Below are positions 1-61,116 of a DNA stretch of 64,000 nucleotides, one piece after another; the first letter of the stretch is position 1; every line of letters begins with the position of its first letter. Below the pieces are notes generated by a model. It ran no database searches. It worked only from the letters and a program-made list of their open reading frames with translations, and was not told the DNA's origin. This stretch comes from Marsupella aquatica. Taxonomy: Eukaryota; Plantae; Marchantiophyta. Location: contig OZ316899.1 in the NCBI GenBank assembly GCA_973895155.1, positions 1,635,573 through 1,699,572 of the forward strand, given 5' to 3'. The translations under genes were made by a program, and so were the position numbers.

Positions 1-2124
1 TCTCTCTAAAGCCACCGCTTCTTCTAATTGGTGCTTCTCCAACTGCTCCCTATGGAAAAAGGGTCCTACCTCCAACTCCTCTCCAAAGATGCCGAGCGCA
101 AGTTCCCCACACATCTCACCATACTCCATGGCTCTATTCTTAGCGTAGGTGGAGTAAGTAGAAGTGATCGGCATCGCCCATCGCGGCCTCTGCTCCCAAG
201 CCGTCTTGCGGATCTCTTCAATCGTGGCTAGAGGTTTGCTTCCTTTTTCGGCTAGCCGCCTGATGTCCTCCGGCCAATCTCCTCCTGGTAAATCCTTTTC
301 CCTAGCCAGGGCTGCCTCCTCTTCTTGCCTGATTCGTTCCTGAAATTCCTGCGCCGTCTGTTTTATGCCGTCAAAGCTCGGGGGAGCAACATCTGGTGGG
401 GAAGACTCAGGGCTACTCTGCTGGTTGGGGTCCCCTCGTACTACCCTTGGAAGTGTGGGGACAAACCGGCCACAGGTCCTTACTCCTGGAACGTGATGGT
501 CCGACCCATAGTCGGAGTTATCATGGCTGCAGTCCTCCACTGCCTCCTCTACTTCTTGGACGTCTGGCTTCTCCCTCTCCTCTTCGTCGGTAGGAGCTTC
601 AGGCAATTCTGCCTCAGATTCAGAGCTTGAGACTCCCACATACATTCGAACACCTGGCTTGGATTCCGGCCTGATTCTCTCCTTGTCTCCAGCAAAGGGG
701 TTTCCTCTTGTGAGCCGGTGTAGGCCTACCTCTGGAGTAGTGTCCTGCATTGTTGCCGTTGCCGTTGTCGTTGCCGATGCCGATCTCTTTTCTTTCTCCA
801 GTAGTTTCAGCAGACTCTGCATGCCTGGTTGTTGCATCGGCAAGTCCTCCGTCCTTGGCCTAAACACCTGCTCGATCGTAGGGCTAACAGGTGGTTGAGG
901 CTTCTCTGCTAACGGCCTTGGTGCTGGAGCTTCCTTGGGTGCCCTTACCTGCAGGGGAAGTACTGGGGCAAAAGTCTGACCTCTGGCATACCGGCACAAC
1001 AGCGGCATGTGATAGCCAAGCCGCGACACGCTCCCCATGCCGATTACCTGCTGCTCCTCCTTTAAGATCTTCTTCAATTGGTTGAGAAGGTACCCATTGT
1101 AGTCCCGGCTTGGGTCTGGCCTCTCTGCCATATAGACCTGTGCCTTGCCGATCTCTGCCCTCGGCAAGTTACAATGCATGGTCACCCGCAAGAAGTCGAT
1201 CATCTCTCCTATGTGCGGGTTGGTGCAGGTGTTCCGGAAGAAGCCATTCTTCGTTGATGGCCCGGGAAACGACCGGAACTCCTTGTCAGGCAAGGTCTTC
1301 CTGGTATCAACTTTGGTCTCATTGCCTATCGGCAAGCCAAACACTTCGGTAATCACTTTGGGAGTAAGATAGAAATCCTTCCCATATATCCTCGTGCAAT
1401 TGGTCTCGGGTTCCCATGACCCCACGAATTCTAATAGGTCTGACTCCGGTACCTCCGGCTTCAGCCATGGTAATCTTACAAAGGCCTCTAAGCCGGATCC
1501 GGCCATGAAGCCTTGGTACTTCTTGGTCTGCATGGCCGTAAAGCATGCATCCTCCTCCCGTGCAAAATGTAGTTGCACCTCCACCAGTAGGGTTGCCGCC
1601 CAGCCCTTCCAGGTGTCATCCCTGGTTGGAATGGCCTTGATGGGATTGACCTCCTCCTCTTTGGCTTCTCCCTGCCTCCTGCTCTGCTGCTCGGCTGGCT
1701 TCTTTGGTGCCGCCGACCTCGTTCTTTTTGCCGGGGTGACTTCATCGTTGACGGCTCCCTTCCTCTTCATCTCTGCTGCCGTGGAGGTTTCTCCTAGCAC
1801 CGTTGCCTGGGTCCACCTTTCCGTGCTACCCTTTAATTCCCAGTGTATGTCGTTGCAGTTCTTGATGGCCTCTCGGATGCCGACGATGCTGTCTTTGCAA
1901 AACAGAAGATCGTCGAGTTGATTGGAAGTAGGAGTCCACAAGAACTCGTCCTTGATGAGTTCGCCTCCTAAGAAAGCCGTCTTCTGCAGCTCCCACAATC
2001 GAGTGAGCTCCTGCCGTTCTCGAGCTGCCCTTTCTGATTCCTCGTCCTCGTAAGTCTTGATGTACTCAGTTGCCCGTTCGAATAGGCATCCCCAGAAATG
2101 TGCCGCTTGATTGACGTTGCTCAT
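1..2124 (-). CDS. LTR-encoded accessory protein, apparently uninterrupted for >700 codons, truncated by the window edge
   Basis: ATG at 2124 (MSNVNQAAHFWGCLFE...). The same frame was checked by hand at 1920-1801 (QLDDLLFCKDSIVGIREAIK...WELKG), 1533 (FAREEDACFTAMQ) and 129 (NRAMEYGEMCG). It is absent from the ORF track, which is consistent with no stop before the edge. Homologous to track ORFs 29192..29662, 28884..29291, 44327..44998 and 27453..27731. Confidence 0.8.
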   Translation of the reverse strand, partial: MSNVNQAAHFWGCLFERATEYIKTYEDEESERAARERQELTRLWELQKTAFLGGELIKDEFLWTPTSNQLDDLLFCKDSIVGIREAIKNCNDIHWELKGSTERWTQATVLGETSTAAEMKRKGAVNDEVTPAKRTRSAAPKKPAEQQSRRQGEAKEEEVNPIKAIPTRDDTWKGWAATLLVEVQLHFAREEDACFTAMQTKKYQGFMAGSGLEAFVRLPWLKPEVPESDLLEFVGSWEPETNCTRIYGKDFYLTPKVITEVFGLPIGNETKVDTRKTLPDKEFRSFPGPSTKNGFFRNTCTNPHIGEMIDFLRVTMHCNLPRAEIGKAQVYMAERPDPSRDYNGYLLNQLKKILKEEQQVIGMGSVSRLGYHMPLLCRYARGQTFAPVLPLQVRAPKEAPAPRPLAEKPQPPVSPTIEQVFRPRTEDLPMQQPGMQSLLKLLEKEKRSASATTTATATMQDTTPEVGLHRLTRGNPFAGDKERIRPESKPGVRMYVGVSSSESEAELPEAPTDEEEREKPDVQEVEEAVEDCSHDNSDYGSDHHVPGVRTCGRFVPTLPRVVRGDPNQQSSPESSPPDVAPPSFDGIKQTAQEFQERIRQEEEAALAREKDLPGGDWPEDIRRLAEKGSKPLATIEEIRKTAWEQRPRWAMPITSTYSTYAKNRAMEYGEMCGELALGIFGEELEVGPFFHREQLEKHQLEEAVALER

Positions 2125-2400
2125 ACCCTCCTTAGGTCGATCGTCGGTATCTACTCTCTCCCCGAGTGCTTGCCTAAGCAGCTGACAGTAGTTGGCCTCC
2201 CGTAGTCGTCTGCCTAGTTCGTGCTCGCAAATGAGCCACCATCTCCTGCAAGCGCTCCTTACCCCTCTCCTCTTCAGGTCCTTCCTCCCGTTGATCCTTC
2301 CTAGCCGCCGACGCTTAACGCGCCCTAACCCTAATCAAGTTTTCACCCCCAGCGTCCTTACCTCCGGCCTCGGCCCGGGTTCCATGGTCGCCCCTAATTG

Positions 2401-2406
2401 TTTATA
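2401..2406 (-). promoter_or_regulatory. Candidate TATA box of LTR G
   Basis: TATAAA on the minus strand ~95 bp inside the LTR start and ~280 bp upstream of the ORF ATG; motif match only. Confidence 0.35.
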
Positions 2407-2515
2407 TTTTCCTTGTTTTGTCCCTATACTAAGGTGTTTCTAGGGTGTCTTCCTGCTTTACCCACTTAACTGGCCGAGTGATTCCTGTCTAGGCATCACA
2501 GCAGCCGCCCCACCA

Positions 2516-7983: not shown

Positions 7984-7988
7984 GTTGA

Positions 7989-10900: not shown

Positions 10901-12687
10901 AAATGACTCACCACCACACCTATCATGGTCACCCCGGACTGGAATAAGGAGTGCCATGTGTACGTCGATGTGTCAGGGTTCTGTATCGGGTCTGTACTCA
11001 ATCAGCTTGATGAGGACGGACGTGACCACCCGATCTACTTTGCTAGCCGTCAACTATTCACAGCCAAAAAAAATATTCTCCCACTGATCAAGAAGCTCTG
11101 GGAATAATCTACTCGTGTAAAAAGTTCCAACACTACCTGCTCAGATACAAGGTCATATTCCACACGAATCATGATAGCCTGAAGTACATGGTCAACAAAG
11201 CGGATGTGACAGGACGGATAGCCCGGTGGGTGCTACTTCTCCAGGAATTTAACTATGAAGTTTGGGTTCGGCCAGGAAAAGCATATCTCAACGCCGACTT
11301 CTTTTCAAGGCTGGACGGTGTACCAGTCGATCAGCCAATTAATGATACTTTTCCGTACGAGGAGTTGTTCCACGTAGGGGCGGGAGGGCCTACATGGTAC
11401 GGCTCAATAATCACCTTCCTCTTAACAGGCCGCATCCCCGACGGCATCAATCAGGAGGCTGCCGCTGTGTTTTTACGGAAGGCCGGGCCGTACGCTATGA
11501 TACAGGGTCACTTACATAAGGAAGGCGTTAATGGGAAGCTATGACGCTGCTTAGAGTATAAGGAGACGCTCATCGTTATGCGGGCCTTGCATGAAGAAGA
11601 AGCTGGAGGCCATTTTGCGGCTATCACGACAGCCCGAAAGATTATGGATTCAGGGTATTGGTGGCCTACGTTGCATTGGGATATACAACGTTTCATCAAG
11701 GGCTGTGACCTGTGTCCGCGGGCTGGGGCCCCACGATGATCTCATCATCACCCTCTCACGTCCGTGCTCCCCTTGGCACCTTTCAAAAAGTGGGGTATCG
11801 ATTATATTGGACCGTTCACTCTCGTTACCCGACGACAAAGATGCAGGTACATCCTGCTAGCTATAGATTACTCCACCAAGTGGGTCAAAGCACGGGCTAT
11901 GGTAAAGGACGACGCTGCAACCACCGCCAGGTTCTTATACGAGCAAATCTTCACCCGGTTCGGGCCGCCCTTGGAGTTAGTAAGCGACCGTGAAACACAC
12001 TTCCTCAATGATACCGTAGCCCAACTTACGGAGCGTTACCTAGTCAAGCACCGCAAGACTACCCCGTATCATCCTAAAGCCAACGGGCTGACAGAAAGAG
12101 CTAATGGTATCATCGGGAAGATCCTCAACAAGACAGTAGCCGCGCACAAAACGGATTGGGATGACAAGTTGTACGCAGCGGTGTATTCGTATAATGGCTT
12201 ACAAGACTACTACGAGTCACAGCCCGTACTTTCTTGTGTTTGGCCAATATTCGTTGGTGCCCATTGAGTTTGAAGTCCACACTCCCCGGGTAGCTTACCC
12301 AAAGCTAAAAGTTCGTCGGACAGAGCTTATCAGATTGAAGCATTAGAAGAAGCACGGCTACTGGCAGCTCGACACGTTGTCAAGCAGCAAGTAGCTTCCA
12401 AGAAGCAGCACGACAAAGGACTACGGAAGGTTGACGTCATGACAGGCGATCTAGTCCTACTGTACGATAGTAGGTACATGCAGTTTCCAGGGAAGCTTCA
12501 TACCCGTTGGTTAGGGCCTTTCCTAGTCAATCAGATCTACCCTAACGGATCTTTGGAACTCGCAACGTACGCCGGCGATTTACTACCCACGCGAGTCAAT
12601 TACGATTGTGTGAAGAAGTACCACCATCAAGACGGCGACGCCCAGAGTGATGTTCGCCAGGACGCTTCACAATTAAGCAGGGAGCTA
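7989..12687 (+). pseudogene. pol: Element A gag C-terminus and pol (two more CCHC knuckles, protease, RT, RNase H, integrase) with several stops and frameshifts
   Basis: CYNCEKPGHFAREC and CQVCKMEAHSTANC; protease VLVDGGAGVNIM; RT WVSPIVIVPKK...MPFGLCNAP...IFIDD; RNase H YVDVSGFCIG...YFASRQL; integrase KWGIDYIGPF...VSDRETHF...NGLTERAN. Confidence 0.92.
12675..12684 (+). other. Polypurine tract of element A
   Basis: AAGCAGGGAG, 3 nt before the LTR start TGTGAC; the equivalent context GGGGGAGCTA-TGTGA occurs in element D. Confidence 0.6.
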
Positions 12688-13054
12688 TGTGACACCGCTG
12701 GTATGGCGGGTAATGAGTAATTTGGTCTAACCACGCTTAGCACGCGTGTTAGGGGTATCTTAGGCCATTATTATTAGCATAACGACAGTATTTAGGTAGC
12801 CATTATGAGTAGGAAATCATTAGTCAATAAGGAGAATTCATGTTTGGGCTGGCGGTGGGTCGTCATTTGCACGCCCGGGTTGCGAGCATGGAATGGTCCC
12901 TTTTTCCCCTCCCTCGGGTCCGTATAACGAACTTCGAGAGGCGGCCACTGACACGAGCTGACCCGGACTAGAGAGGGGGCCGGTACACTGCGAGCGTGAA
13001 AGGATCGACCTATAAGCGACGAGGAGGCATTGGGCGATCGACAAGCTCTCAGGG

Positions 13055-13062
13055 TATAAAAG
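13055..13062 (+). promoter_or_regulatory. TATA box of LTR A
   Basis: TATAAAAG followed by a CT-rich tract and an ATG at 13161; conserved in LTR I (19496-19503). Confidence 0.6.
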
Positions 13063-13160
13063 GGGGGCCGATCCTTTGTAGTGCACCAGCTCTCCAGCCC
13101 ACACGCCAACTTTGATCCCAGCTCTCTCGCTTTTCCTTAGTCACCTGCTATCTCCTCTGA

Positions 13161-15716
13161 ATGTTGCACACAATCCTTTCTAGTTTGGCCATACGATTCT
13201 GGACTCAGTGGCCGACTCATTGAAACACGCCAACCCGCGCCGATACGAGATCGAATGCAAATACGAGAGAGCCATCCGCCTAGCAGGATGACACCACTAT
13301 CTCCTTAACTTTGATTACCTGTCCTAGAGCAAGCTTTACCGACCCGAAGAAGTATCAGGGTACTTCTTCGACGGAGGCAAATACATCGGCTTCTGGGAGG
13401 CACTGCTTCGGCTTCCGGATGAGGTCTTCAATATTCCGGGCACGATCGACTTACAAAGGCACCACTTCGACCACATCCCCGCTCGGGTCCGGGCTATCAT
13501 CAAGGGCAAGTTCAACACTACCCGGTCGATAGGACCATCTTCACTTGCGTCGGAAAACCTCCACCGGCACTTGTAGAACTTCATGGCAACTCTACCATCA
13601 ACGACCAGTGCCGGCCAACCCGTGCCCGTACCTACACCTCCTCGGCCTCACCCAAGCCGGTCCCCGCCACCGGTTCCACCACCTCTCCAAGTACAATCCA
13701 TGGTGAATGCGGTACATATCAGCTCCAAAGACAAGGAGGCTCACCCTCCTCTGAATCGACGACCGCGGGGTATGAACAACCCCACACCACCCCAACAAGC
13801 CCGAGGGGACAACACGGTAACGCTAGCGGCCCCGACACCAATACTCACGGCAATCGCGCTACCACCACCTGACCGAGAGGATGGAGAGATGTCCCCTTCT
13901 TCTAGTCACCCCAGGAATCAGTCTCGGGGTAGGAAGAGGAAGGAGCCCGCAGCCGTATCCAGGTTGCCTTTGGCCATGGTTGCGGTAGCCAAGTTGACCA
14001 TGCATCGCATGGGGGACAACGTTCACAAGAACATCCTCCACCCCAACCATGCATGCTATCTGAAGACCCAGGGGTTTGAGCACCTCGCCTCTCTCCCTTG
14101 GAACGGGAGCAGGTATTACGGGCAGGATATGACGGAGTTCATTCAGAACTTCGACGAGGCCCATCAACAAACCCGAGCGCACGGGAGAGTGATGTGTCTC
14201 AATGAGGCACGTCTGAAGATGATTTTCGGCTTACCCGAGGGGATAAACCGGGTAGAGTCGCGGGCTCCCTAGGGGCAAGGGAGCTAAATACCAGTCATCT
14301 AGCTTCCCAGCCAAAGGGGTAGTGGACAATGGGTTCTTAATGAGGACGTGCCTCATCTCGGAGGTAGCAGAACGCCTAGAGTTCCAACGGTATGCCCTCC
14401 ACATGATGGAACCTAGAGGAGAAATATCGGCCGCTCAGGTCATCCAGGTGGAGAACTATCGGCCCAGGAAGTGGGCGTCCTTCTTTGTCAAGAAGTTCCA
14501 CGAGGAGATGGAGCAAAGAAGGAAGACTTTGTACCTTGGTGGAAGGGCGTACTTCGCTAGCCACGTCAAAATCATCCTCGAGTGGTACGCTCATTTCGAC
14601 CGCCGGAGCCTCTCGCGTCTCAATGAGCCCAAGCTGACCCCGCCAAAATGGGTGTTCCCAGCCCAGGTGAGGCGACCGCAGCCCAAGGCCCCAAGTCTGG
14701 CAGCTGCAAGTCCTGCGACCCCGGCCTCGCAACCCGCCGCTACCGCCCTGCCATGCATACCCATTGACGTTATCGCGACCTTAAACGCCATCAATCGGGA
14801 CAATGCCATCAAAGCCGGGCCGGATGAAGCCGTACCCAAAGTAGATGCCACGGTAGCCAGGGAGATTCCTCCACCCCCTGAGGTTGTGCAGGAGAACCAT
14901 CCACCTCCAGTGGAACCATCCCCTTCGACCAACTTACCTCAAGGGCTGGATGTGTCCACTCCTACTCCCGCACGGGTTGGAGTCTGCCCGTGCCCGAATC
15001 CCAAAGGACACAGTCTAGACCATCCGGAACTCTTTGCGCCGGGCACATTTCTGAATGGGTTGTTGGGAGATTTCTCGCAACAGATTTCTCGGGACACCGG
15101 GGAATACATGGCCCAGAGGGTGTCCTACTTCTTCAACCAGGAGTTGGTTGCGGCAATAAGGGCAGGACATACGCAGGCAGAGACCGCGCAGAGAATAGAG
15201 CGATATCGGGTTGAGTCTGCCTACCTGAAGGACAAAGTGGCAACTCTGGAGGCTGAACTCCAGCAACTACGGCCTCAGGTAATGGCCACAGAGGACCAGG
15301 TCGCCAAGGCTAGACCCCAAGCAGCGTTGGCAGTACAGGCCGGGCTTGGAAAGGACGCCGAGATTGCGCAGCTCCGTACCAAGATTGACGGTTTGCAGGG
15401 GCAAGCCGTCAGTTGGCAAAAGGATCTGGAGGAAGCTGACTCCAGGTCTCAGCGGGACACAGCCCTGAAGGTAGAGGTGGCACGGCTTCAAGGAGAAGCC
15501 ACAAAACAGGCCCAGTTGGTGAACAAGCTGACGAGCGACACCCAGCAACTGGAGGAGGCATGCCAGGAGGCCGCGGAAGAGGCAGATGCGGCAAAGCGAG
15601 AAAAAGAATCTCTGCTGGACCAGGTCCAGCTACTCAAGCAGGACGCCGACAGGCTCAGAAGGCAACGGGATAGCCGCTCCCACTCAGGCGGCTCTGGCAA
15701 ACGTGCCAGGCATTAG
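13161..15716 (+). pseudogene. LTR A accessory ORF (Pro-rich N-terminal region, conserved central domain, C-terminal coiled coil), disrupted
   Basis: ATG at 13161, then a small deletion relative to LTR I, several stops and a frameshift at ~14270. Track ORFs 13583..14272 and 14322..15716 match the LTR I ORF. Confidence 0.8.
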
Positions 15717-18177
15717 CGATGAAGTAGGATTAGAGTAGAGTTAGGAATAGCTCAATTAGGCTATAGGGACAAGCACCTGCCCTAGTTAGAGCAGCACTGC
15801 CATGCTGCACAACCTGCGTAGATTAGGATCTTCTAATAAGACAAGCCGTTTTCCGGCCTAACAGCAAGCTTAGTTAGGACCTTAGGTAAGCGAATCTTCA
15901 AGCGCAAGGGCACTCCGTTCCTGGGCCCTTAGTATTTAATGCACCCCTCGGTAGAGGCAGGGGGGTTTTTAGTCTCAGTGTTGGACATCCGCGGTATGTG
16001 CGGGGAGTCCCGACCTCTGGGAGTGAAAGAGTACCGAGGGGAGGGTGTGGGACTAAGCTCGCTGGGCAAGTGCGGAGCCGGGCTCTGTTGTAATGTACAC
16101 CCTCGGCCTTGGACCTGTTCATTCCAGAACTTTTGGGTCAACTAAGTGTACGCATATGTCTCCTATGTAGTAAAATCCTTTCCCATTATTTCCTTTGTGT
16201 AAATCGAGATTGTATGCTTGCACGTATGTGTATGTGTGAATCTCGTGTATAGGTGCCAACGCTTGGCCGAACGCACTACCCAAGTTGGGCACAGGGTGCA
16301 GTTTGCGGGTAGTGGTTGCGAGCCCGGGTTGAGTACCCATATCATCAAATCCGGATCGAAGGCGGACAACACAAAGGCTTAGAAGCCTGTAAGCCGGGGT
16401 CGATCCTGTTATCGACTAAGGTACGTTCCGGCGGCGGAACACAAACCATACCTAGGAGGTGTCCGTATATGACCATAGGCGCACTTAGCGCTAGTTTACG
16501 TGAGTTAGGTGCATTTCGTGCATCCCTCCCTGCCCGAACCCTCATTTTGACGAAGGATGTGCCTGTCTAAGCCAAAGCCCGGGTTAAGGCCTAGGGCTGA
16601 CGACATGACAATTCACGATCCACACTATGCTGGACCGATTCTTTCACTGGGCTTGCGAATTGTGTATTGCTAAGACGCCTAATTCTCAATTGACTTCGTC
16701 GGGTATGTTTGTATTCCGCCCCCGGAATGTACCTCTACGGCTTAATCTCTTAAGCCGGCTGAAGGTTTTTCTCAGACCGACTCAACCCACACTTTAACCA
16801 ACAAAAAACTCTCAATCCTCAGTTTTCTCTCAGAGTTTGGTTTGGCAGTCTCCAATCAAGACAATGCGATCGTATAGCTTTGCAATCGCTCTATCTGACT
16901 CAAATCGATCAAGCGACAAGTATCACAACACACAATGCCATGATTGCAAGAATCTGTGAACTAGGCAACGAGGCCAACTCAATTCAAACAATTGCATAGA
17001 AATGGAATTTGTGGTTTACTGATAATCCGCGGTCTAGATTTAGCCGAGAAGTTATGCTAGTAATACAGAATTTACACTAGAGTCTTGACTAAGAAAAAGC
17101 CCCCGAGCCACGCTGCCCAGGTTTTTATCCTTGCAGCGCATCCAAGGGAATTGGTGGAAATCCGAACCACAAATCACGGCCTTCCACCGTGATAATCCAG
17201 CCAAAAAAACTAACACCTAACACAATTTGACTAACCCGGAACCCTGCGGGAACCAAGCATCTAATGCTACCTAAGCCGACAGGGCGCTACTTGCCCTGTC
17301 CCATCCTACAATGGCCGTGCCCTTCTGGCCCAAGCCCTTCTCCTACCGCCACGTCCTCCTTCCAACCGATGACTGGCCCTCCTTAATTGTCAGATGACCG
17401 GCGGTAAGCCCAAATCTTTTGACTCTGCACCTTCTCCTGCCATCGGCTCCGGCTTGATCCCTTCGGCTTCGTCGACCTCGGGTTCTGATTTATCGGCCCT
17501 GGCATTGGCAGCAGCAGCGGCATCTTCCTAGGAAACGGCTTGGATAGCGTTGGCCTTTACTTCCTCAATCCAAGCCTACTCTCCGATCCGTTTGGTATCG
17601 ATCTTCCATGGCTTCACATTCTTGTAGTCCATGGTGGTTGTACCAGTGTCTGAACCTGTTACCGCAGCTCCAAGTTCATCGGCATTACTTATCTCTACCA
17701 CGGCTGCCTTTGTAGCAACAGTCCCACAAATGTGAGCGGCCATACTCTCAACCTCCTCTGGAGTGGCCTTGAGAGGTACCCTAGCAGTCATGGGGCTAGA
17801 GGTACCCCACCTGCTACCAAATGCATTGCCTTACCCCCAGTTACTCTTGACAATATAGATGTCGGCTTCGGCACTTCAGTATTTCCGGCTACCACGCCAC
17901 TAGCGGGAGACCGTCCAGTTGGTGATCCGTGCCCGGCTCTGGCATACTTCCATAATTTCTCTGTTTGATTATCTGCACGCCTCTGCAAGCCAATCATCTT
18001 GTCTTTGGCCTCCTCCAGCTCTTGGGATAAATCCTCAACTTCCTCATTGAGCCGATGCGCCTCCTCTTTGGCCGTCTTGAGCTCCTCGTTTAAGATCTGC
18101 ATGATCTCAAACTCCTACTTATCCAAAGTGGCTCTCTGGGAATCGTTGATGCTTTCCAGCTTTGTGACCTCATCCGT

Positions 18178-19026: not shown

Positions 19027-19027
19027 T

Positions 19028-19045
19028 TGGTGACCATACTGGGGA
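19028..19045 (+). other. Primer-binding site of element B, probably tRNA-Arg type
   Basis: TGGTGACCATACTGGGGA, 1 nt after the LTR. It resembles TGGCGAC...CTGGGGA tRNA-Arg PBSs after C>T changes; the tRNA identity is inferred. Confidence 0.65.
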
Positions 19046-19495
19046 TTCCTTGGGGCAATTGGATGAGATGGGTGACTATGACAAAGTTGATCGGATCTCG
19101 AGCATCGTCATGTCGATGATGAGAACCATAAGGAAGTGTGACGCCGCCGGTACGGCGAGTAATGAGTAATTCAGTCTAAACCGTGCTTAGCACGCGCGTT
19201 AGGGGTATCTTAGGCCGCTATGATTAGCATAATGATAGTAATTAGGTAGCCATTATGAGTAGGAAATCATTAGTCAATAAAGGGAATTCATGTTTGGGCT
19301 GGCGGCGCGTCGCCATTCGCACGCCCGGGTTACAAGCATGGAGGGGCCCCTCCCTCGGGTCCGTATAACAAACTTTGGGAGGCATCCACTGACACGCGGT
19401 GACTCAGACCGGCGGAGTGGCCGGTACACTACAAGCGTGAACGGCTCAGCCTATAGGCAACAAGGAGATGTCGGGGGATCGACAAGCCCTCAAGG

Positions 19496-19503
19496 TATAA
19501 AAA
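19496..19503 (+). promoter_or_regulatory. TATA box of LTR I
   Basis: TATAAAAG, 108 bp upstream of the in-frame ATG at 19604, followed by a pyrimidine-rich tract. Confidence 0.6.
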
Positions 19504-19603
19504 GGGAGCCGACCCTTTGTAGTGCACCAGTCCATCAGTCCACGCGCCAGCTTCGACCCCAGCTCTCTCGTTCTCTCTTAGTCGCCACTACTATCTCCTC
19601 TGA

Positions 19604-22255
19604 ATGTCGTACACGATCCTCTCCAGTTCGGCCATTTGATTCTGGACGCAGTTCCTATCTACCGGAAGACATTTGGCCGACTCATTGAAACACGCCAACC
19701 CGCGCCGATACGAAATCGAACGCGAGTACGAGAGAGCCATCCGCCTAGCAGGACGACACCACTACATCCTTAACTTTGACTACCCATCTCAGAGCGAGCT
19801 TTACCGACCAGCAGAGGTATCTGGGTACTTCTTCAACGGAGACAAATACATCGGTTTCTGGGAAGCATTGCTTCGGCTTCCGGACGAGGTCTTCAATATC
19901 CCGGGTACGATCGACTTGCAACGACATCACTTTGACCACATCCCTGCTCAAGTTCGGGCTATCATCAACAGCGAGTCCAGCACTACACGTTTGACAAGGT
20001 CGTCCGCACTTGCTTCGGAGAACTTCTACCAGCACCTGCAGAGCTTCATGGGAACTAGACCCGCAACCGCCGGCACCAGCCCAGTGGACCCCATACCCGT
20101 ACCCACACCAACGCAGACTCAGGCTCAGGCTCAGCTTCAGCCTCAGTCTCAGCCTCAGCCTAGCCAACCCCCACCACCGATCGCCCCGCCAGTAGTACAA
20201 GTACGCTCCGTCATCAACGCTGTGGACCTTAGCGACGACGACAAGGCTACCCCACCCTTGCTCAGGCGGCCCAGAGGAGCAAACACTCAGGGTGCCGACA
20301 CTACATCGTCCCCTCCCCATGCTCGGACCCAAGGAGCGGCTCCAACAGACAACACGGTGACCGTGGCCACCCCGGGACCAATACTAACGGCGGTAGCACT
20401 ACCTATCCCCGATCGAGAGGATGGGGAGGTGTCACCTTCCCCGAGCCAGTCACGGGGGAAGAAGAGGAAGGAACCCGCCACTGCATCCGGGTTACCATTG
20501 GCCATGGTAGCCGTGGCCAAGGTGACAATGCACCGCATGGGGGAAAACGTGCATAAGAACATCCTCCATCCCAAGCATGCGGTGTACCTGAAGACTCAGG
20601 GATTTGAGCACCTCGCCTCTCTCCCCTGGAACACTTGCAGGTACTACGGGGAGGACATGACGGAGTTCGTCAAGAATTATGATGACGCACGTCAACATAC
20701 TCGGCTGCGGGGAAGGAATATGTCCCTCACGGAAGAACGGCTCAAGATGATCTTCGGATTACCCGAAGGTGACCATCGAGTCAAATCATGGGCTCCCGGG
20801 GGCAAGGGAGCCAAGTACCAATCCTCAAGTTTTCCCTCAGAGGGAGCAGTGGACAACGGGTTCGTGATGAGGACCTGCCTCATCCCCGAGATAGCTGAGC
20901 GACTGGAGTTCCAAAGGTACGCCCTCCACATGATGGAACCCCGGGGGGAGATCTCCGCCGCCCAGGTTATCCAGGTCGAGAACTATCGACCTAGGAAGTG
21001 GGCGTCGTACTTCGCTAAGAAATTCCATGAAGAGATGGAGCGGTGAAGGAAGACGTTGTACATTGGCGGGAAGGCGTATTTCGCTAGCCACATCGAGATC
21101 ATTCTTGAGTGGTACGCTCGGTTTGATCGACGAACCCTTCCTTGTGTCAACGTTACAAAGCTGGTCCCAGCTAGGTGGGTTTTTCTGGCCTTGGAGAGAC
21201 GGCCCCAACCCGAGGCCCAAAGTCCAGCGGACACACAAGCTTCACCTACCCTACCTCCACAAGTAGCTGTAGTCGTAACCAAGGAGGTACTGGATGGGTC
21301 GGCTATCACAACCATAGATGCGATCCAACAGGCCGGGCTAAGTACCGAAGTCGGTACAGCGGAGGTCTTACTCGAGCCTGGGTCTCCCAAAGACCCACCG
21401 GTGGCTATTCTGGAAAATCGGACATTGCTGCAGGAGGACACTCCAGCCCCTTCCAACATTACGTCCCCAGGGCGGGATGTCACTGCCCCGGCCCCCGCGC
21501 GTGTTGACGTCTGCCCGTGCCCAACTCCGGACAGGCACAACCTGGACCACCTGGAACTCTTCGTACCGGGTACATTTCTGAACGGGCTTCTGGGAGATTT
21601 CTCTTATCAAATTGCCTGGGATACCGGGGAGTTCATGGCCCGAAAGGTAGCCTGTTTCTTCAATCAGGAGTTAGTTGTCGCAATAAAGGCAGGTCGGGCC
21701 CAATCAGAGGCATTTCAGAGGATAGAGCGGTACCGGGTGGAGTCCGTATACTTAAAGAACGAAGTTGCAACTCAAGAGGCTGAGCTTCTGCAACTACGAC
21801 CCAAAGTTGCAGCCGCCGATGATTTGTTAGCAAAGGCGCACGCTCTTACCGCCCTAGCCGAGCAGGCCAAAGCTGGGAACGAGGCCAAGATTGCACGACT
21901 CCGGAACCAGATTGACAATTTGAAGAATCAAACTGTCATCTGGCAGAAGGACCTGGAGGAGGCCGAAGAACGGGCCCAGCGGGACACTGCGGAGATAGCC
22001 ATGCTACAGGCCGAAGTGGCACGGCTCCAAACCGAAGCCGAGAAGCAGGACTAGCTGGCGGGCAAGCTGACGAGCGACGCCCAGCAGTTGGAGGAGGCAT
22101 GCCAGGAGGCAGCGGAGGAGACAGACGGGGCGAAGCGAGAGAACGAATCTCTGCTGGACCAAGTCCAACTCCTCAAGGCAGACAACGACAGACTTCGTAA
22201 GCAGCGGGATGGCCGCTCCCACTCGGGTGGCTCTGGCAAGCGTGCCAGGCATTAG
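19604..22255 (+). pseudogene. LTR I accessory ORF, 883 codons in one frame with three premature stops
   Basis: ATG 19604 to TAG 22253-22255. Stops at ~19637 (CGA in copy A), 21044 and 22052 are each one C>T away from a sense codon. Confidence 0.85.
20114..20163 (+). repeat. 6-bp CAGNCT-type repeat encoding QTQAQAQLQPQSQPQPSQ
   Basis: cagact caggct caggct cagctt cagcct cagtct cagcct; absent from copy A. Confidence 0.75.
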
Positions 22256-25200
22256 CGGCGGAGCAGGAATAGAATAGGGTTAGGAATAGCTAAGTCAGGC
22301 TATTGGGACAGGCACCTGCCTTAGTTACCGCAGCACTGCCATGCTGTCCAGCTTGCGTAGATTAGGATCTTCTAATAAGACACAGCCGTTTTTCGGCCTG
22401 ACAGTCAGATTAGTTAGGACCTAAGTCAGCGAATCTTTGGGCGGGAGGACACTCCGTTCCCTGGCCCTTAGTATTTAGTGCACCCCTCGGTAGAGGCAGG
22501 GGGGGTTTTTAGTCTCAGAGTTGGACATCCGTGGTATGTGCGGGGAGTCCCGACCTCTAGGAGTGAACGAGTACCAAGGGGAGGGGGTAGGACTAAGCTC
22601 GTCGGGCGAGTGCGGAGCTGGACTCCATTGTAGTGTACTCCCTCGGCCTTGAACCTATTCATTCCGGAGCTGTCGGGTCAACCAAGTGTCCGCATATGTC
22701 CCCTATGTAGTAAAATCCTTTCCCATTATTTCCTTCGTGTAAATCAAGATTGTATGCTTGTGCGCGTGTATATGTGTGTGAATCTCGTGTATAGGTGACA
22801 ACGTCGGGCCGAACACACTACCCGAGTCGTGCACGGGGTGCAGCTTGCGGGTATGTGGTTGCGAGCACGGGTTGAGGACCTGTATCATTGAATCCAGATC
22901 GAAGGCGGACAATACAAAGGCTTAGAAGTCCTTAAGCCGGGGTCGATCCTGTTATCGACTAAGGTACGTTCTGGCGGCGGAACACAAACCATACCTAGGA
23001 GATGTCCGTTTCTAACAGTAGGCGCACTTAGCGCTAGTTTATGTGAATTAGGTGCATTATGTTCTTCCCTCCCTGCCCGAACCCTCATATTTACGAAGGA
23101 TGTGCCCGTTTAAAGCTGAAGCCCGAGTTAAGGTCAAGGCTAATGACGTGACAGGAAGGAAGAGCTTGAGTCGGAAAGGGTGAACAGGGAAGTGAATAGA
23201 ACTACTCGGTGTCTCCAAGAGGTTCTAAAGGAGAATGGGCAGTTCGAGGGGAGAAATGTGACAAGCTACCTTAAGTCTTACTTGATAGAAGCAGCTGTCT
23301 ACAAGTTGGACGAAGGGACGACGGTGAAAGAGTTCATGGTGCTGGTTGAGAAGGAGTTGAATTTGACGGTGCGGACCATCGTTGAGTCAACTGAGGGCTG
23401 GGATGACTTCGACCAGAAGATGAAAGAGGAGTTCCAAGCGGAGGATGCTGATCGGGTCACGCAGGCTACCTTCTTGGATTGGGTGAATGACAGGAACAAG
23501 AAGCTGAAAGGGCCGCAAGAGCTCCTAAGGGAGTTCAAGAAAAGGGTGTCTTAGTTACCGAAGCGGGATGTGGAAATCATCGAGTTGCAGCGCTCAACGC
23601 TCTTCTTGAGGGCAGCCGATGAGGACCTTCGAGAGGAGCTTGAGAACGCAATGGAGCTGCTGGAACCTTCGAGAGTTACCTTGCCTAACGACTGGAACCA
23701 AGTTGAGAAAGCGGTGTCAAAAGTGAGCAATCGACACTAGCGGCGAGAGCTAGATAAGGAGGCTACCACTCTCGACCTAAGGCCGCCGGAAACGATATTG
23801 AGGAAAGGGAAGCGAGAACCAGCAAAGGATGAGATCAAACCATTGGTGGATGATCTCGCGGAAATGATGCAGAACCTGAAGATCTTGGTGGCACATGCGG
23901 TCGAGAATCCAAAACTGAGGGTTGGGAGTGCTCCCGAGAGGAAGCAAGAGATGCAGAGTTGGCCATGCATGTGGTGCGATAGCAAAGAGCATGACAAACG
24001 GGAGTGCCTGGACCTGAGGGAAGCTACGGATAAAGGGCTGATCAAGTTCGTCGGTGAAGTTGGTCAGAAAAATATATCGTTTGCCGATACTAAAGAGCCA
24101 ATTCCATTCAACTCCAACAAGGGAGGCATGAAGGCTTTGGCTGAGAAGCGAGCTGGGAAGCGAGGCGAAGAGGCGTCCTCTTTGCACCTGGAAGCAAATG
24201 TTTACAATGTGGAGTTGGATGGACCCGTGACGGAAATGGACAAGTTTTACAAGCGCTTGGCGGATCTGGTGCGAGAGAGATCCGGATGGAGTGACCCGAT
24301 GCTGATCAATGCGATAACGGTTGAGGTTGGGGCTAGTTGGGATGCCTCGGTCGAGTCAAAAAGGAAGAAAACCGACGAGGATGACACTCCGTCTCAATCA
24401 GGGGAACGAGAGAGGCGGGATACTTGAGACAAGGAAAGAAGGGTTAGGTTCAAAGAAGAGGAAATGAGCGAGAAAGAGCCGGAGAAAGGGAAACCGGTCA
24501 GGAAGGACCCGGGCTGGGTGCTTGGCAGGGATGTGGACCAGGCCATGTACCCCGAGGTTGTAGCTGAGAAGTTCTGGAGCCAACAGGCTCAAGGGTTTAC
24601 GAATGCCGAGTTCTTTGGCAGTATGAGGCGGGAGATCCAGGAAGCAATCTTGGAGAGATCCAAGAGGAAACGGATTTACAAAGAGGGCCCTCACACCTTG
24701 ATGGGGGAGGCTGGCGAGACGGAAATTGGAAGTTTCCAAACTTACACTGCTGGGGTGTCCATGGGTTCAGGTAGTAAGCTTGCTGGCCCCGAAGAGTCAG
24801 ACTTGGGGAAACCAAAGAGGGTCAAGTCCCTTGAAGAGGAGTTCATGAACTTGGACGATGAGTTCTTTGATGCGGAAGAGGAGCTCATGGGAACCGGAAG
24901 CGAAGCTGAGTCTGTGGCAAACTAGGACCCGACTGAAGGGGAAGAACAAGAAAGCATTACCGCACAGTCGAGGACCATTCATGTCATGGGCTCAATGAAA
25001 GGAAACGGTTATGCTTACCGAGATGGATACTGGGCTCGAGCAAGTCCGGAGAGCAAGTGCCAATTAGAAGGAATGGAAGGCAAGGTGCGGGCGCTCATTG
25101 ATACTGGCTTGGAGATCAACTTGATGGATCCAAAGGTGTTTCAAAAGGGGAATTGGCCGGTGGATAATGAGTTGCTTTGGAGTGTGAACTCGGTGAGTTC

Positions 25201-26258
25201 AATGAAGGACTATCTTTGGGGCGGATGTCCAAATGTGATGGTGAAGTTCGGGAATGTCAAGCAGGCTTGTAACATTTTGGTTCATGAGCACTTGTCGTTT
25301 CCGGTGATACTGGGCATGCCGTTCATCACTTAATGGAGGATGGAGACAAAGGTTCTGGATGATACTACCTTCATGGTGAAGGTTTGGGGCAAAGATGATA
25401 AGGAGGTGGTTCAATTTCCGGCGGTTCTACTTGGAGATGAGAGGAACCGAAAGCAGCTGCAAGATCCAACAGCGACAGAAGTTGGCATTGCTATGGGGGA
25501 GAACCGAGATGCTAAGATGGATCTAAGTGCAAAGTTCAAAGGGGAGCCAATTGCGGACCAAAAGATGGGGAGTCTAGTGTTCAAGGAAGAGTGTTACTCA
25601 GGAGAGCTACTGGACATTGGGAAGTATCTCAGTGACTTTGGGAAGCGGCTGAAGCAGGATGGTAAAGAGTTCAAAGACATTCGAGTGAAATCAGATAAGT
25701 TCATTCTTAGAGAGGGCTACCTTTGGCGGAAACCTAAGGGCCCCATGCTAGTACCGAGGAGAGTTGTCGATTCTAAGGATGAGCAAAAGCGGATTTTGGA
25801 GGAAGTCTATGATGCTGAGGTCAAAGGTGGTTTGAAAGGAATAAGGGCGAAGGTCTGTGAGCAGATTTGAAAGGAGTATTGGTGGCCAGATTTATATTGG
25901 GATGTTCAGGAGTATGCTGACAATCGAGGGATCCATCACAACTTGAAGAGGCAGATTCAAGAGCTTGATCGGATTGACTATCGAGTTGTTGACATACGGG
26001 AGAGAGTGAAGGTTTGCAAGGTGCGAACTAGAGATGAAATGGACTCAAGTTCCGACTTGAGTGAATTTGAAGACGAGGCACTGGTCCAGGCGCATCAGTT
26101 GGACTTGAGTTTTGAAAGTGGCTTGACTGGTTCTGATTCGGATGACTTGGACTTTGAGTTTCTGGAAAGTGGAGTGCCTAAGGCCGAGTCTGAAGGCTTT
26201 GGGTTTGAGTTTCTTGAGGAGGAAGATTGGAGCAGACCGGAGGCTGCTCAGGTTTACT

Positions 26259-26267
26259 GGGGGAGAA
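26259..26267 (+). other. Polypurine tract of element B
   Basis: GGGGGAGAA directly before the 3' LTR TGT. Confidence 0.8.
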
Positions 26268-27115: not shown

Positions 27116-30100
27116 CCGTCCATGCCTGCTTTGTCCTGGTTATCTCCTCTTGCAGCTCCTTGCATATATGTTGGACTCTGCTCAGATGATCATTGGCCGC
27201 AGTGCAAATGGCGTCCTCATGCTTCTCTCGCATGGCCTCCAACCGGTTGAGTAACTTGTCATACTTCCTTTGGGCTTCTGCCAAGGCCTTCTCGCGCTGG
27301 GTGGCCTGCTCCTTAGCCGTCTTTCTGAGCCTCTCAACTTGCCAATTTAGACCCTGTACCTCCGCTTTTGAATCGGCTAAGTCTAGCTCTACCTTCGTCA
27401 GATTTTCTTTGATCTGCTGGTTATCCAATTGGTTGTTCACCACCTCCAATTCCTATTGCTTAGCCAAGAGATCCTGTTGAGCTTGTTGATCAAACTTTGT
27501 CTTAGCAACTTCGGCTTCCATGGAGCAAAGCCGAGCGATTACCTCCTCCTTCTTTAGTCGCTCCAACGTCATTGCCTCCTCCAACCTTGTCTGGTCAGCC
27601 ATTTCCTTTCTAAGAAATGGTCTGGATTCTAACTCATTGCCAAAGATTTCTAAGGCTAGCAGTCCACACATGTCTCCATACTCCCTAGCCCGATCCGTCG
27701 CATATTTTGACCTGCCAGGTGATACTGGCATCTGCCAACGAGGCCGTTTCTCCCAAGCTTCTGCCCGTAACTAATCAAAGTCAGTGAGAGGCGCGGCCTG
27801 CTTCTCACTAAGCCATTTTATTTCCTCCGGCCAATCACCGCTTGGTAGCTGCCGTTCCTGTATGTCATTTTGGGCCCTCCACTCGTTGAGTTTCTCCTTG
27901 AAACCTGCCTCGGCTTCCTTCATTCAGTCAAATTCCAATGGTGTCATGTCCGGTGGCGGAGACTTTGGGGTTTTCAGATCCTCCGGCTTGCCATAAAAGA
28001 CTGAGGGAAGTCTTCTACAAAACCTTCCCAACGTTCTTACTCTTGGCACCGGTCTCTCCTCATGATCGACATAATCATCGTCGTAGTCATCCACATTAAC
28101 CTGACTACCGAGCATGCCGCCTTCTTCTGCAAAGCCCCCAATCTCCTCCACTGAGTATTGTTGGGCTGCCATAGGTTGATTTACCTCCACTGGTTCCTCC
28201 ACTCGGGCCCGGCTAGAATCTCTAAGGACTGGCCTCTCCTGACTAAGGCCTTGGCTTCCATCTTCTGACTCCGAACCCATTTGCTCATCTCGTTTCTTTC
28301 TTTCTTTGGCAGTCATTTTCCTCTCTACCAGTTGAATACCTGCATATGGGTTATTACGAGTAGGCCGTCGCAACGGATTTCTCACCACATCATATGTTAC
28401 CACCTTTGGTTCCTTGAGAGGGGAATTCTCCCGTCCCTAGACTGCCTATATTGTCGGCCTCTTCTCTTATCGTCGCTTGTTCAGGGGCAACTCGTCCCCC
28501 TCCTCCACTCATGCTGTAATCAGCATCCTCTCCTATAGTGGTAACACGGGTGCAAAAAACTGGCTTCTTGCATATTGGCAAAGTAATTGCAGATGGTACC
28601 CTAGTTTGGATAACGCTCCTTCCCCAATACTCTACTTCTCCTCATTCAATGCCTTCTTTAACTGCATTAAAAGATAGCCATTGTAGTCTCGGCTTGAATC
28701 GATATTCTCCACCAAAAATACCTGGGCTTTGCCGATCTCTGCTCTCGGCAATGTATAGTGTAGCGTGACTCGTAAGAAATCAATCAACTGCCCCACATGT
28801 GGATTAGTGCATTGATTTCTAAAGAACCCATTCTTAGTAGAGGGCCCTGGAAATGATCGGAATTGATTATTTTACAATGTCTTTTACTGCTCCACCTTAG
28901 TTTTATTCCCTTGTGGAAGAGCAAAGACAGCTTCAATTAGTGTTGGCGTTAATTCCACCACCTTCCCATACACCAATGTCGTGTTAGAAGAAGCCTCCCA
29001 ACATCCTACGAAGTCTAATAGATCTTTGTCTTGTATGTCAATTAACCGCCATGGTAACCGAATGAATCCCTCTAAGCCGGTGTCGTTCATGTATCCAGAA
29101 TACTTGTTATCCTGGATAGCACAGAAGACCTCATCTTCTTCTCGTGCAAACTGTAGTTGGAAGTCGGCAGGTAGCTTATCCGCCCAACCCGTCATAAACT
29201 TATCCTCCATTGCCCTATCACAAATTGGCACAGCTTCAGCCTTGGCCTGCCTCTCTGATCGATTCCACTTAGCTGGTGTTGCAGACGCCAACTACCTTTA
29301 CGCTTCTTCTCTTCAGTTCCTGAGAACTCTCCAAGAATGGCTTCTTTGGACCAAGCCGAAGTGTGACCCTTCAACTCCCACACCGGCTGTCCAGCATTCT
29401 TAATTGCCTCTCGAATTCCAACAACTTGATTCTCTCTGATCAGCAACTCATCAAGCTCGGCACTGGTGGGAATCCATATGAATTTCTCAAGTACCTCCTC
29501 CATTCCCACAAACGCCGTCTTATGAATTCCCCATAACCGCGCAAGCTCTACCCATTCCCTTGCTGCTCGTTCTGGCTTGACGTCTTCGTAGGTTGGTATG
29601 AGCTGTCGTGCTTCTTCAAGCAAACAGCCCCAGAACTTGGCCGCTTGATTCACCGTGGTCATTCCACCAAAAGAAAAAGGAGCTTGAACAATTCCCTAGC
29701 CACCTCCCTCGATTGATCGGCAGCTGCTTCCGCGGTCCTAGGTTGATCGAACAAGCAAATGAGCAAGTGTACAGAGTGTCGGTTCCCTCCCTGCGAAGCC
29801 GCCTCCTGATGGCTTGCCTGATCAAGCCCGAATTAGGTCATAACCCTAATCCTGCTCAATTGCGACCGTTGGATCTTACCTTATCGCAATCCTCCTTATA
29901 ACACATTGCAATCGGCTACAGTCTTTATTCCTACCTTATACTATTTAGCCATTATCTTTATTTAGCCATTATTTTAGGCTTAACTAATGTCAAACACTTG
30001 TCAAGGAGCTTAAGCGGCTTTCCTCCCCAAAAGACTACCAATACCTGCTCCATATCATACCAGGGTCACAAAGGATTGACAAAACTTCTGAAATGTGCCT

Positions 30101-37016: not shown

Positions 37017-37048
37017 TTAAGTCGGTCCCCCCTCAATTCTCTTCGAGC

Positions 37049-44039: not shown

Positions 44040-44058
44040 ACTTGCTTTTGTTACCCTT

Positions 44059-45647
44059 GTTTCTTTCTTTCTTTGGCAGTCATTTTCCTCTCTACCAGTT
44101 GAATACTTGCATATGGGTTATTACGAGTAGGCTGTCGCAACGGATTTCTCACCACATCATATGTTACCACCTCTGGTTCCTTGAGAGGGGAATTCTCTCG
44201 TCCCTGGACTGCTTGTATTGCCGGCCTCTTCTCTTGTCGTCGCTTGTTTAGGGGCAGCTTGTCCCCCTCCTCCACTCGTGCTGTAATTGGCATCCTCTTC
44301 TGTAGTGGTAACACGGGTGCAAAAAACTAGCTTCTTGCATATTGGCAAAGTAATTGCAGATGGTACCCTAGTCTGGATACCGCTCCTTCCCCAATACTCT
44401 GCTTCTCCTCATTCAATGCCTTCTTTAACTGCATTAAAAGATAGCCATTGTAGTCTCGGCTTGAATCGATATTCTCCACCAAAAATACCTGGGCTTTGCC
44501 GATCTCTGCTCTTGGCAATGTGCAGTGTAGTGTGACTTGTAAGAAATCAATCAACTGCCCCACATGTGGATTAGTGCATTGATTTCTAAAGAACCCATTC
44601 TTAGTAGAGGGCCCTGGAAATGATCGGAATTGATTATCCAGCAATGTCTTTCGCTGCTCCACCTTAGTTTTATTCCCTTGTGGAAGAGCAAAGACAGCTT
44701 CAATTAGTGCTGGCATTAATTCCACCACCTTCCCATACATCAGTGTTGTGTTAGAAGAAGCCTCCCACCATCCTATGAAGTCTAACAGATCTTTGTTTGG
44801 TATGTCAATTAACTGCCATGGTAACCGAATGAATCCCTCTAAGCCGGTGTCGTTCATGTATCCAAAATACTTGTTATCCTGGATAGCACAGAAGACCTCA
44901 TCTTCTTCTCGTGCAAACTGTAGTTGTAAGTCGGCAGGTAGCTTATCCGCCCAACCCGTCATAAACTTATCCTCCACTGCCCTATCACAAACTGGCACTG
45001 CTTCAGCCTTGGCCTGCCTCTCCGATCGATTCCGCTTAGCTGGTGTTGCAGACGCCGACTACCTTTACGCTTCATCTCTTCAGTTCCTGAGAACTCTCCA
45101 AGAATGGCTTCTTTGGACCAAGCCGAAGTGTGACCCTTCAACTCCCACACCAGCTGTCCAGCGTTCTTAATCGCCTCCCGAATTCCAACGACTTGATTCT
45201 CTCTGATCAGCAACTCGTCAAGCTCACTGGTGGGAATCCATACAAATTTCTCAAGTACCTCCTCCATTCCCACAAACGCTGTCTTATGAATTCCCCATAA
45301 CCACGCAAGCTCCGCCTGTTCCCTTGCTGCTCGTTCCGGCTTGACGTCTTCGTAGGTTGGTATGAGTTGCCGTGCTTCTTCAAGCAAACAGCCCCACAAC
45401 TCGGCCGCTTGATTCACCGTGGTCATTCCACCAAAAGAAAAAGGAGCTTGAATAATTCCCTAACCATCTCCCTCGATCGATCGGCAACTGCTTCCGCGGT
45501 CCTAGGTTGATCAAACAAGCAAATGAGCAAGTGTACAGAGTGTCGGTTCCCTCCCTACAAAGCCGCCTCTTGATAGCTTGCCTGATCAAGCCCGGATTAG
45601 GTCATAACCCTAATCTTGCTCAATCGTGACCGTTGGATCTTACCTTA
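44059..45647 (-). mobile_element. Fragment C' of a C-family coding LTR with part of the accessory ORF
   Basis: Near-identical to ~28298-29885. The left junction to D falls in a (TTTC)n tract; the right end is cut by element E. Confidence 0.85.
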
Positions 45648-47977: not shown

Positions 47978-48585
47978 TGCCGTGCGCATACACATCGCTA
48001 CACAACATACATCGCTTGTCACATACATCCAAACATAGTCACACGTACTGCCACATCACAAACACAAGAGAATGGAATACAAGTGGAACTCATGTCCACA
48101 CATGTCCAAAACCCACAATAATCTCCTCAACAATCGGCACAACGATCCCGGTCAACAATACCCCATCGATCCCGCACCGATCTGATCACACACGTATGTC
48201 AAGCCAACGCACCTTGCACTACTCAAGGAATCCACGTTACACAAGTGGAGCTCACAGCCACCATAGCCACTCAAGCTCCTCTCTCTCCAAGGCTCAACAT
48301 TGAAAGATGACCTTTCAATGCCTCACAAGTGAGAAGTACCCTCTCACACAAACTTGACGGAACCTTATCGGCTCATATAGCACACATACCAAACATACGG
48401 ATCTAGATAGTACGATATACTCTAACACTACCTAGAATGGTGTGACAGCTGTCGTGCGCATACACATCGCTACACAACATACATCGCTTGTCACATACAT
48501 CCAAACATAGTCACACTGCCACATCACAAACACAAGAGAATGGAATACAAGTGAAACTCATGTCCGCACATGTCCAAAACCCACA
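47978..48585 (-). repeat. 3' LTR region of the DNMT element with a ~137-bp direct repeat at both ends
   Basis: 48450-48585 is repeated at 47978-48117. An internal ...CGACA-GC-TGTCAC... junction lies at 48447-48450 (minus strand). Confidence 0.75.
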
Positions 48586-61067: not shown

Positions 61068-61116
61068 GTGTGGGGGATCGCTAGATCCTCGGGCTTACCT
61101 CTGTTGGATAGCCTGA

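Follow-up and report, generated by a model that had tools for sequence, protein, structure and literature searches.

The formation of a solo long terminal repeat (LTR) is usually seen as the step that strips a retrotransposon of its genes, and the locus described here raises the question of whether it can also leave a whole gene behind. The locus lies in a 64,000-nucleotide stretch of the liverwort Marsupella aquatica (contig OZ316899.1, positions 1,635,573 to 1,699,572 of the forward strand; hereafter the window, numbered from its first base), in which a 4-kb solo LTR, LTR B, holds an accessory gene together with a likely promoter and terminator. We find that the unit is a true LTR carrying a gene, that the gene has been under purifying selection, and that the central domain of its product likely adopts the fold of VANC21, the anti-silencing protein of the MuDR transposon VANDAL21.

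A solo LTR that carries a gene

LTR B starts with TGTGACG, finishes with CGTGACA and sits between two copies of GGAAG in the gag of a host element, F, whose gag reading phase is unbroken across the insertion site, as the original prediction had read it. The unit is colinear from end to end with positions 12688-16610 of element A, at 62-96% identity per 100 columns. Copy A begins right after AAGCAGGGAGCTA at the integrase end and lacks a target duplication, in line with its being a 3′ LTR, and this whole-length match to a copy adjacent to a polypurine tract (PPT) confirms that the unit is an LTR and not an internal region.

Contigs from four public runs were aligned to the window (5,262-13,449 per run, in which depth is not equivalent to copy number), and all 30 bins were covered in every run, pointing to a large family. 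Contigs with the empty site, free of B, occur in two of the four runs (X2 and X4), with joints of 19129/19130 to 23152/23153; in other contigs, the 5′ terminus of B (19136/19137) recurs as a joint with family-internal sequence, and contig ends behind 23153 are mixed sequence in the four runs.

No internal direct repeat connects the two ends of B, and its 5′ and post-gene non-coding parts show no homology to each other, with scores at shuffle level, which rules out reading B as a duplicated short LTR or a terminal-repeat retrotransposon in miniature (TRIM). The non-coding parts (19137-19603 and 22256-23153) differ between A and B by 0.14-0.18 per site, far under the synonymous divergence of the gene and six to seven times less than its synonymous sites, a likeness that reflects either strong constraint or exchange between the families. 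We consider it very likely that 19137-23153 is a true LTR carrying a gene, and the solo LTR retains the full cassette of gene and upstream TATA box that had been proposed for it.

Selection on the gene and its homologues

In B, the open reading frame (ORF) starts at an ATG at 19604, downstream of a TATA box at 19496, and continues in one frame to a TAG at 22253-22255, interrupted by stops at codons 12, 481 and 817, all in agreement with the first description. These three codons are sense in copy A, and the third stop is missing from nearly all other contig depth in the four runs. Copy A shares this layout (TATA box at 13055, ATG at 13161), although its decay, with at least two frameshifts and several stops, goes further than had been implied. 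The gene in copy B is a pseudogene, and our claim concerns the family.

The comparison of LTR copies suggested at the outset gave a ratio of nonsynonymous to synonymous divergence (dN/dS) of 0.16 between A and B (bootstrap 0.12-0.20; dN 0.17, dS 1.05, 786 aligned codons), which is not near 1. By region, the ratio is 0.06 in the core, 0.13 in both the N-terminal domain and residues 631-725, 0.19 in the coiled coil and 0.23-0.44 in the linkers, where indels are mostly multiples of three. Mismatches number 146/108/331 by codon position, and four of the other five frames yield ratios of 1.0-2.0, the remaining one, the antisense frame sharing third positions, giving 0.25. The gene has thus been under purifying selection.

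Searching the core against 1.84 billion representatives returned 42 matches at E ≤ 0.001, and of the 20 that were looked up, the six with a named organism all belong to Calypogeia fissa. The homologue P0045 (906 residues, stop-free, 33% identity) is colinear end to end and has the same start-codon context and terminal KRAR as B; its colinearity from the start-codon context onward supports the ATG of B. A word-based homologue search with residues 295-530 among proteins of 485-1546 residues yielded none from 601 candidates, and pattern matches in metagenome contigs were confirmed as related loci in 0 of 62 and 0 of 74 cases.

Predicted fold of the protein

The AlphaFold2 model of the core was built from 45 sequences, namely 40 database proteins and five pieces from the window (P0037 and P0042 were excluded, and P0045 was substituted for P0004), and reached a predicted local distance difference test (pLDDT) score of 89.3 and a predicted template modelling (pTM) score of 0.85. 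The original prediction had named VANC among the structures to compare, and VANC21 bound to its target DNA was the top PDB match of the core in Foldseek (probability 0.98, TM 0.52, E 0.013), the runner-up having a probability of 0.03. Alignment of the predicted model with VANC21-DNA by VIA-align gave Z 8.1 and rmsd 4.1 over 207 of 234 residues at 11% identity, and among 48,161 chains VANC21 was the only one with Z ≥ 5, the next reaching 2.4. An embedding Atlas, which counts as one source, placed the protein with the DUF1985 and PMD clusters (0.85 for B, 0.90 for P0045), the DUF1985 set appearing in 16 of 30 matches. DUF1985 is described as the VANC domain, the PMD of MAIN/MAIL proteins is reported to share its predicted fold, and for VANC a coiled coil is predicted to mediate oligomerisation (PMC13547354; 10.1101/2024.09.27.615353). 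According to the model, the core likely has a VANC/PMD-type fold; it is basic (35 K+R against 25 D+E) and flanked by motifs resembling nuclear localization signals (NLS).

By sequence, Pfam found only coiled-coil noise in the B protein, with PF09331, PF10536, PF03078 and PF20167 unmatched and no transposase domain; for the 45 alignment members, the Pfam matches listed (25 of 51 families) held a single weak PF20167 hit (E 0.059). Membership in PF20167 or PF03078 has no support by sequence. A viral fold library gave nothing at E ≤ 0.001 (best TM 0.22). The N-terminal domain, modelled at pLDDT 80, had no PDB match by Foldseek, and its best Z values, up to 4.7, were to generic helical bundles. No transmembrane helix was found in B or P0045, where the maximum 19-residue hydropathy is 1.3. 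Anti-silencing, one of the functions first considered, gains support from the VANC21 fold match, whereas a movement or env role is left unsupported because a transmembrane segment is absent.

The carrier and related families in the window

The carrier elements have the domain order protease, reverse transcriptase (RT), RNase H, integrase, with a short RNase H-integrase linker (read by eye), no chromodomain and no additional RNase H, and the integrase ends at the PPT. On these sequence features the carrier is an Athila-like Ty3/gypsy family, although, unlike in Athila, no space for the extra ORF is left between them, as pol extends into the PPT and the ORF follows beyond it. The RTs of A and of a second element, D, group with Calypogeia RTs (99/97), apart from angiosperm matches, in a tree of 33 rows that included no labelled lineage references. 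Named homologues of the gene and of the RT come mostly from the leafy liverwort Calypogeia fissa, which points to a leafy liverwort as the likely host. A and D, whose RTs are 65% identical, also share GACGCTTCACAATT and the PPT (12661-12687, and 40500-40526 on the minus strand), and the pol of both reads through GACGCTTCACAATT/PPT into the LTR.

The core domain occurs six times in the window (Table 1), with gene identities of 24-41% across the other families. Element C contains the 3′ half of the gene followed by the non-coding motifs common to A and B, and the ten bases TGTGATGCCT that start element G also follow the PPT of D at 40499. The two gene copies of D differ by 5.4%, with 77 of 85 changes being transitions and mismatches of 16/10/12 by codon position, which show no bias, and their dN/dS is 0.62 (confidence interval 0.33-1.39), a value lowered by the omission of nine stop-bearing codon pairs. 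The D copies decay neutrally, as does the LTR pair of F (5.0%), a pattern suggesting that both LTRs of D formerly carried the gene. Since the same gene stands beside the same LTR terminal motifs in other families, the layout is old.

The gene-bearing families are nested in one another (C in D, G in the start of A's gag, A abutting D-prime), and contigs hold family copies inside B-type LTRs; this nesting may reflect targeting.

Probable promoter layout of the LTR

The original prediction had placed the gene downstream of the LTR promoter. Instead, a second TATA-like, TTAG-rich module follows the stop codon, together with 3′-end-like signals and hairpins. The word at 22469 reads TAGTATTTA(G/A), with TTAGTC about 40 bases further on, and A and B are 95% identical across 22456-22555. 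The module is found in A, B, C and D-prime, with GATAAAAA in D-prime at the matching distance ahead of TTAGTC. A 21-base terminal-box pattern built from these four copies matches only them in the window, stem pairing being retained despite changes on both sides; in viral contigs it gave two matches, both unrelated.

TTAG is enriched at the LTR start or before the second module in seven of nine segments (P 0.003-0.04 against dinucleotide shuffles), and YAGTAWTTA has six matches in the window against 1.07 expected, five of them in these LTRs, with two each in A and B, in a post hoc count. No tandem array was found inside the LTR, windowed folding z-scores of the 3′ part of B were mostly unremarkable, and beyond the terminus no alignment was obtained among the 5′ parts of B, G, D and D-prime.

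Because the second promoter-like module comes after the stop codon, the gene most likely lies in an expanded unique 3′ region (U3) with its own promoter. Judging from this sequence layout, the last ~900 bp are probably an ordinary LTR, with promoter, repeated region (R) and unique 5′ region (U5), and the preceding 3.1 kb would be added U3. A second promoter after the gene would let gag-pol be expressed without special translation; among the routes considered at first, a downstream start is thus favoured by the post-stop module, the upstream TATA box would become an accessory promoter, and splicing or re-initiation would be unneeded.

Proposed mechanism and its alternatives

The reading that we favour, with somewhat better than even confidence and in part on the strength of a structural model, is that of a solo LTR whose gene occupies an expanded U3, has its own promoter and encodes a nuclear, DNA-binding anti-silencing protein with a VANC/PMD-type fold. 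Promoter 1 (TATA at 19496) would give an mRNA of ~3.2 kb ending at the LTR's 3′-end signal at ~22710-22790, and promoter 2 (~22470-22515) would start the genomic RNA, dividing the LTR into a U3 of ~3.4 kb, an R of ~250 nt and a U5 of ~400 nt. The genomic RNA would carry the gene at its 3′ end, and with the PPT placed immediately after pol, ordinary reverse transcription would copy the gene into both LTRs. Such an arrangement may have originated from an accessory ORF located 3′ of pol, like that of angiosperm Athila, which came to lie in U3 through an upstream shift of the plus-strand primer site. The protein would oligomerise through its coiled coil, bind short words beside both promoters, either TTAG-rich clusters or YAGTATTTA, and oppose DNA methylation or Polycomb silencing of its own family, such that each solo LTR would keep gene, promoter, terminator and target sites together.

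An anti-silencing role, taken by itself, is slightly favoured by the modelled fold, and the simplest function by analogy, a trans-acting, sequence-specific protector of the family's promoters, has an even or marginally better chance of being correct. We hold only tentatively, with more doubt than belief, a broader scenario in which a VANC-type anti-silencing gene, together with its promoter, terminator and binding sites, was brought into the LTR by a liverwort gypsy lineage, solo LTRs becoming self-reinforcing cassettes that de-silence the family in trans, and in which the VANC/PMD fold was present in bryophyte retrotransposons long before dicot MuDR.

Several observations weigh against the favoured reading. 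No intact two-LTR element and no primer-binding site (PBS) was seen in the window; the 5′ LTR-pol junction and PBS region of D are deleted, and its 3′ LTR is cut by insertions, the continuity from 40499 to 29884 being untraced through 32900-29900. The VANC21 fold match has 9-11% identity and a Foldseek E above 0.001, and a Z of 8.1, near the level that the tool calls common, is middling by itself, albeit far above the 2.4 of the next chain and with domain-wide coverage. Sharing a fold is no proof of function, and PMD proteins of the host promote transposon silencing too. TTAG is unenriched in D's LTR start and upstream of D-prime and is also enriched downstream of the module in C, and the P values for TTAG and YAGTATTTA are optimistic because the motifs were picked by eye. 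As a TATA box, TATTTA(G/A) is non-canonical, and its further occurrence at LTR +100, a position not suspected of being a start, means that the word may serve as a binding site instead of a promoter; the likeness of the word to the VANC21 target likewise weakens the TATA-box reading, and that likeness may itself be due to chance.

The last points bear on an alternative that we consider unlikely, in which a single promoter starts the genomic RNA at ~19525, R extends over ~3.2 kb and contains the gene, and gag-pol is reached by splicing, re-initiation or internal entry. The only canonical TATA box in B is indeed the one at 19496, the downstream word recurs at LTR +100, and a long R would presumably be no obstacle to strand transfer. 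In Ogre, the PMD extra ORF lies upstream of gag on the same strand, which is taken as favouring a single promoter. Such an ORF is given for 57% of Ogre elements (PMC6317226). An R of 3.2 kb would, however, demand that a poly(A) signal far from the cap be suppressed and that the RNA contain two copies of the gene, and it would leave unexplained the conserved post-ORF module, 95% identical between A and B and shared with C.

It is similarly doubtful that the gene in the LTR encodes a structural or targeting factor that has the VANC/PMD fold but no anti-silencing activity, such as an integration chromatin tether, a transcription activator or a particle scaffold. The 11% identity to VANC21, an extra N-terminal domain without a clear fold match, a long coiled coil and the varied roles ascribed to PMD proteins (PMC6317226; 10.1101/2024.09.27.615353) would fit such a factor, but the two branches of the fold that have been characterised both counter repressive chromatin at short DNA motifs, and a separate promoter and NLS-like motifs suit a trans-acting nuclear regulator. 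Finally, it is highly improbable that the 4-kb unit is a separate non-autonomous element (a Ginger-like DNA transposon or a short-repeat TRIM) that landed after pol, for although TGT..ACA ends with a short target duplication would fit this too and the window holds no 5′ LTR of A, copy A starts exactly after the PPT without a target duplication, the same PPT in D is followed by the TGTGATGCCT start shared with the gene-bearing G, and the unit has neither internal direct repeats nor a transposase domain.

Comparison with known systems

VANC proteins are described as binding short non-coding motifs and removing methylation, the VANC21 motif being YAGTATTAY (PMC5735166). The liverwort protein resembles VANC21 in its predicted core fold, its coiled coil, its encoding by a transposon and the candidate short repeated words in the accompanying non-coding sequence, where the LTR word YAGTATTTA recalls the VANC21 motif. 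Unlike VANC21, it is carried by a gypsy LTR instead of a VANDAL/MuDR element, shares just 11% identity, has an extra N-terminal domain and is accompanied by no tandem arrays. The PMD-C proteins MAIN, MAIL1 and MAIL2 belong to the same fold family according to a published structural comparison and act at short promoter motifs against Polycomb silencing; in contrast to the liverwort gene, they are host genes, and they show no sequence match to it.

Extra ORFs are reported to be common in Athila, Ogre and Retand, where two classes are told apart by a position 5′ or 3′ of the polyprotein (PMC6317226), and they are described in the internal region only (PMC7264820). These ORFs (PF03078, the PMD PF10536, PF04195) share with the present gene an accessory status, a non-chromovirus gypsy carrier, long LTRs and a PMD-type lead, whereas in the present case the PPT adjoins pol, the LTR contains the gene and Pfam gives no match by sequence. 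Diaspora, an element of the Athila lineage, is described as having long LTRs and no extra ORF after pol (PMC1142308). Retrosat2 is outlined as having 3.2-kb LTRs and an ORF0. Maize Grande gene23, likewise an accessory gene, has a promoter of its own and encodes a nuclear protein (PMC7264820), but it is antisense and internal, and being internal it is lost when a solo LTR forms. A likeness in position is offered by the superantigen gene (sag) of mouse mammary tumour virus (MMTV), a protein gene in a long LTR that is copied to both ends and whose expression is reported to rely on spliced RNAs with starts at the 5′ LTR or in env (PMC3026287); in MMTV, however, the LTR measures 1.3 kb and immunity is what the protein acts on, whereas here the gene is 2.65 kb and the TATA box lies inside the LTR itself.

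No account of a plant LTR harbouring a gene turned up in the literature covered, which lay outside subscription papers, supplements and the VANC21 structure paper (10.1266/ggs.25-00096); two apparent matches were a phrase from a methods section (PMC6673714) and a paper on mouse, and the part of a liverwort genome paper that lists Athila and Phygy holds no such detail (PMC12885004). What makes the case unusual is the arrangement, which we have not found described, since element and fold are each of a kind already known. Every full element would hold the gene twice. For the accessory ORFs of Athila-type elements, whose function has long been open, a predicted fold in common with the only well-characterised plant transposon anti-silencing protein, with candidate target words beside the promoters, offers a concrete and testable answer. 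VANC has been described as dicot-specific and viewed as having arisen in dicots through the capture of MAIN-like host genes (PMC13547354), a view called into question by an old retrotransposon pool of the fold in liverworts. Pipelines that restrict extra ORFs to the internal region or set an upper limit on LTR length would overlook such elements.

Feature coordinates and neighbouring elements

Table 1. Coordinates, in the window, of LTR B, its gene and the related copies.
Feature	Position	Strand	Remarks
Solo LTR B	19137..23153	+	4017 bp, TG..CA
Left target-site duplication GGAAG	19132..19136	+	Within gag of host element F
Right target-site duplication GGAAG	23154..23158	+	
First TTAG-rich cluster	19137..19290	+	YAGTATTTA-type word at 19236-19245; candidate binding sites
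TATA box TATAAAAAG	19496..19504	+	Putative accessory-gene promoter 1; kept in A at 13055
Accessory gene	19604..22255	+	883 codons; three premature stops in copy B
N-terminal helical domain	19640..19981	+	Conserved; dN/dS 0.13
Central domain	20492..21121	+	Predicted VANC21/DUF1985/PMD-like fold; NLS-like KKRK in front; dN/dS 0.06
Coiled coil and C-terminal KRAR	21779..22252	+	KRAR NLS-like
Second TTAG-rich cluster	22256..22515	+	TAGTATTTAG (22469-22478), TTAGTC; likely genomic-RNA promoter
CGGGGAGTCCCG stem-loop	22541..22552	+	Common to A, B, C; likely R start
TGTA/AGTAAA/AATCAA and GU-rich tract	22706..22790	+	Likely 3′-end signal
Conserved hairpins and ACAAAC box near LTR end	22919..22989	+	In A, B, C, D-prime; stem changes on both sides
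PPT of element A	12675..12687	+	Overlaps last pol codons
3′ LTR of element A	12688..16610	+	Sister family, with a decayed copy of the gene
Element C, 3′ part of related LTR	45647..47974	-	Same gene, 41% identity; ends CGACA, inserted at TAAGG
Element D, gene copy upstream of pol	44056..45641	-	Likely 5′ LTR remnant
D-prime, gene copy downstream of D's pol	27116..29884	-	Split by element F; probably belongs to D's 3′ LTR
D-prime, continued	16611..18177	-	Coiled coil, TTAG cluster, GATAAAAA, shared terminal hairpin box
Element G	1..2500	-	Starts TGTGATGCCT; same gene, 28% identity, starting within about 330 bp

The host element F (18178-27115) has 849-bp LTRs that are 5% diverged, gag and protease but apparently no RT, and is flanked by CCGT, a 4-bp NCGN-like target. 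A target of this kind is described for Phygy (PMC6317226), and F is possibly a non-autonomous Phygy-like element. Element E (47975-55700, minus strand), also of the gypsy type, encodes a C5 cytosine methyltransferase domain (PF00145, E 6.5e-7, 52142-52789) that separates protease from RT, and its integrase finishes with a PHD finger (PF00628, E 2.3e-11). An insertion in A's gag at 3540-7970 contains long frames at 4249-5184 and 5064-6521 without a Pfam match, the first with an LPW-like motif by eye and no tblastn match to the core domain. A 12-bp tandem array at 57282-57643 stands beside a terminus that looks CACTA-like by eye. Two related long interspersed nuclear elements occupy 32916-40282 (minus strand) and 59208-63656, the first lying in D's 3′ LTR with a 17-bp target duplication.

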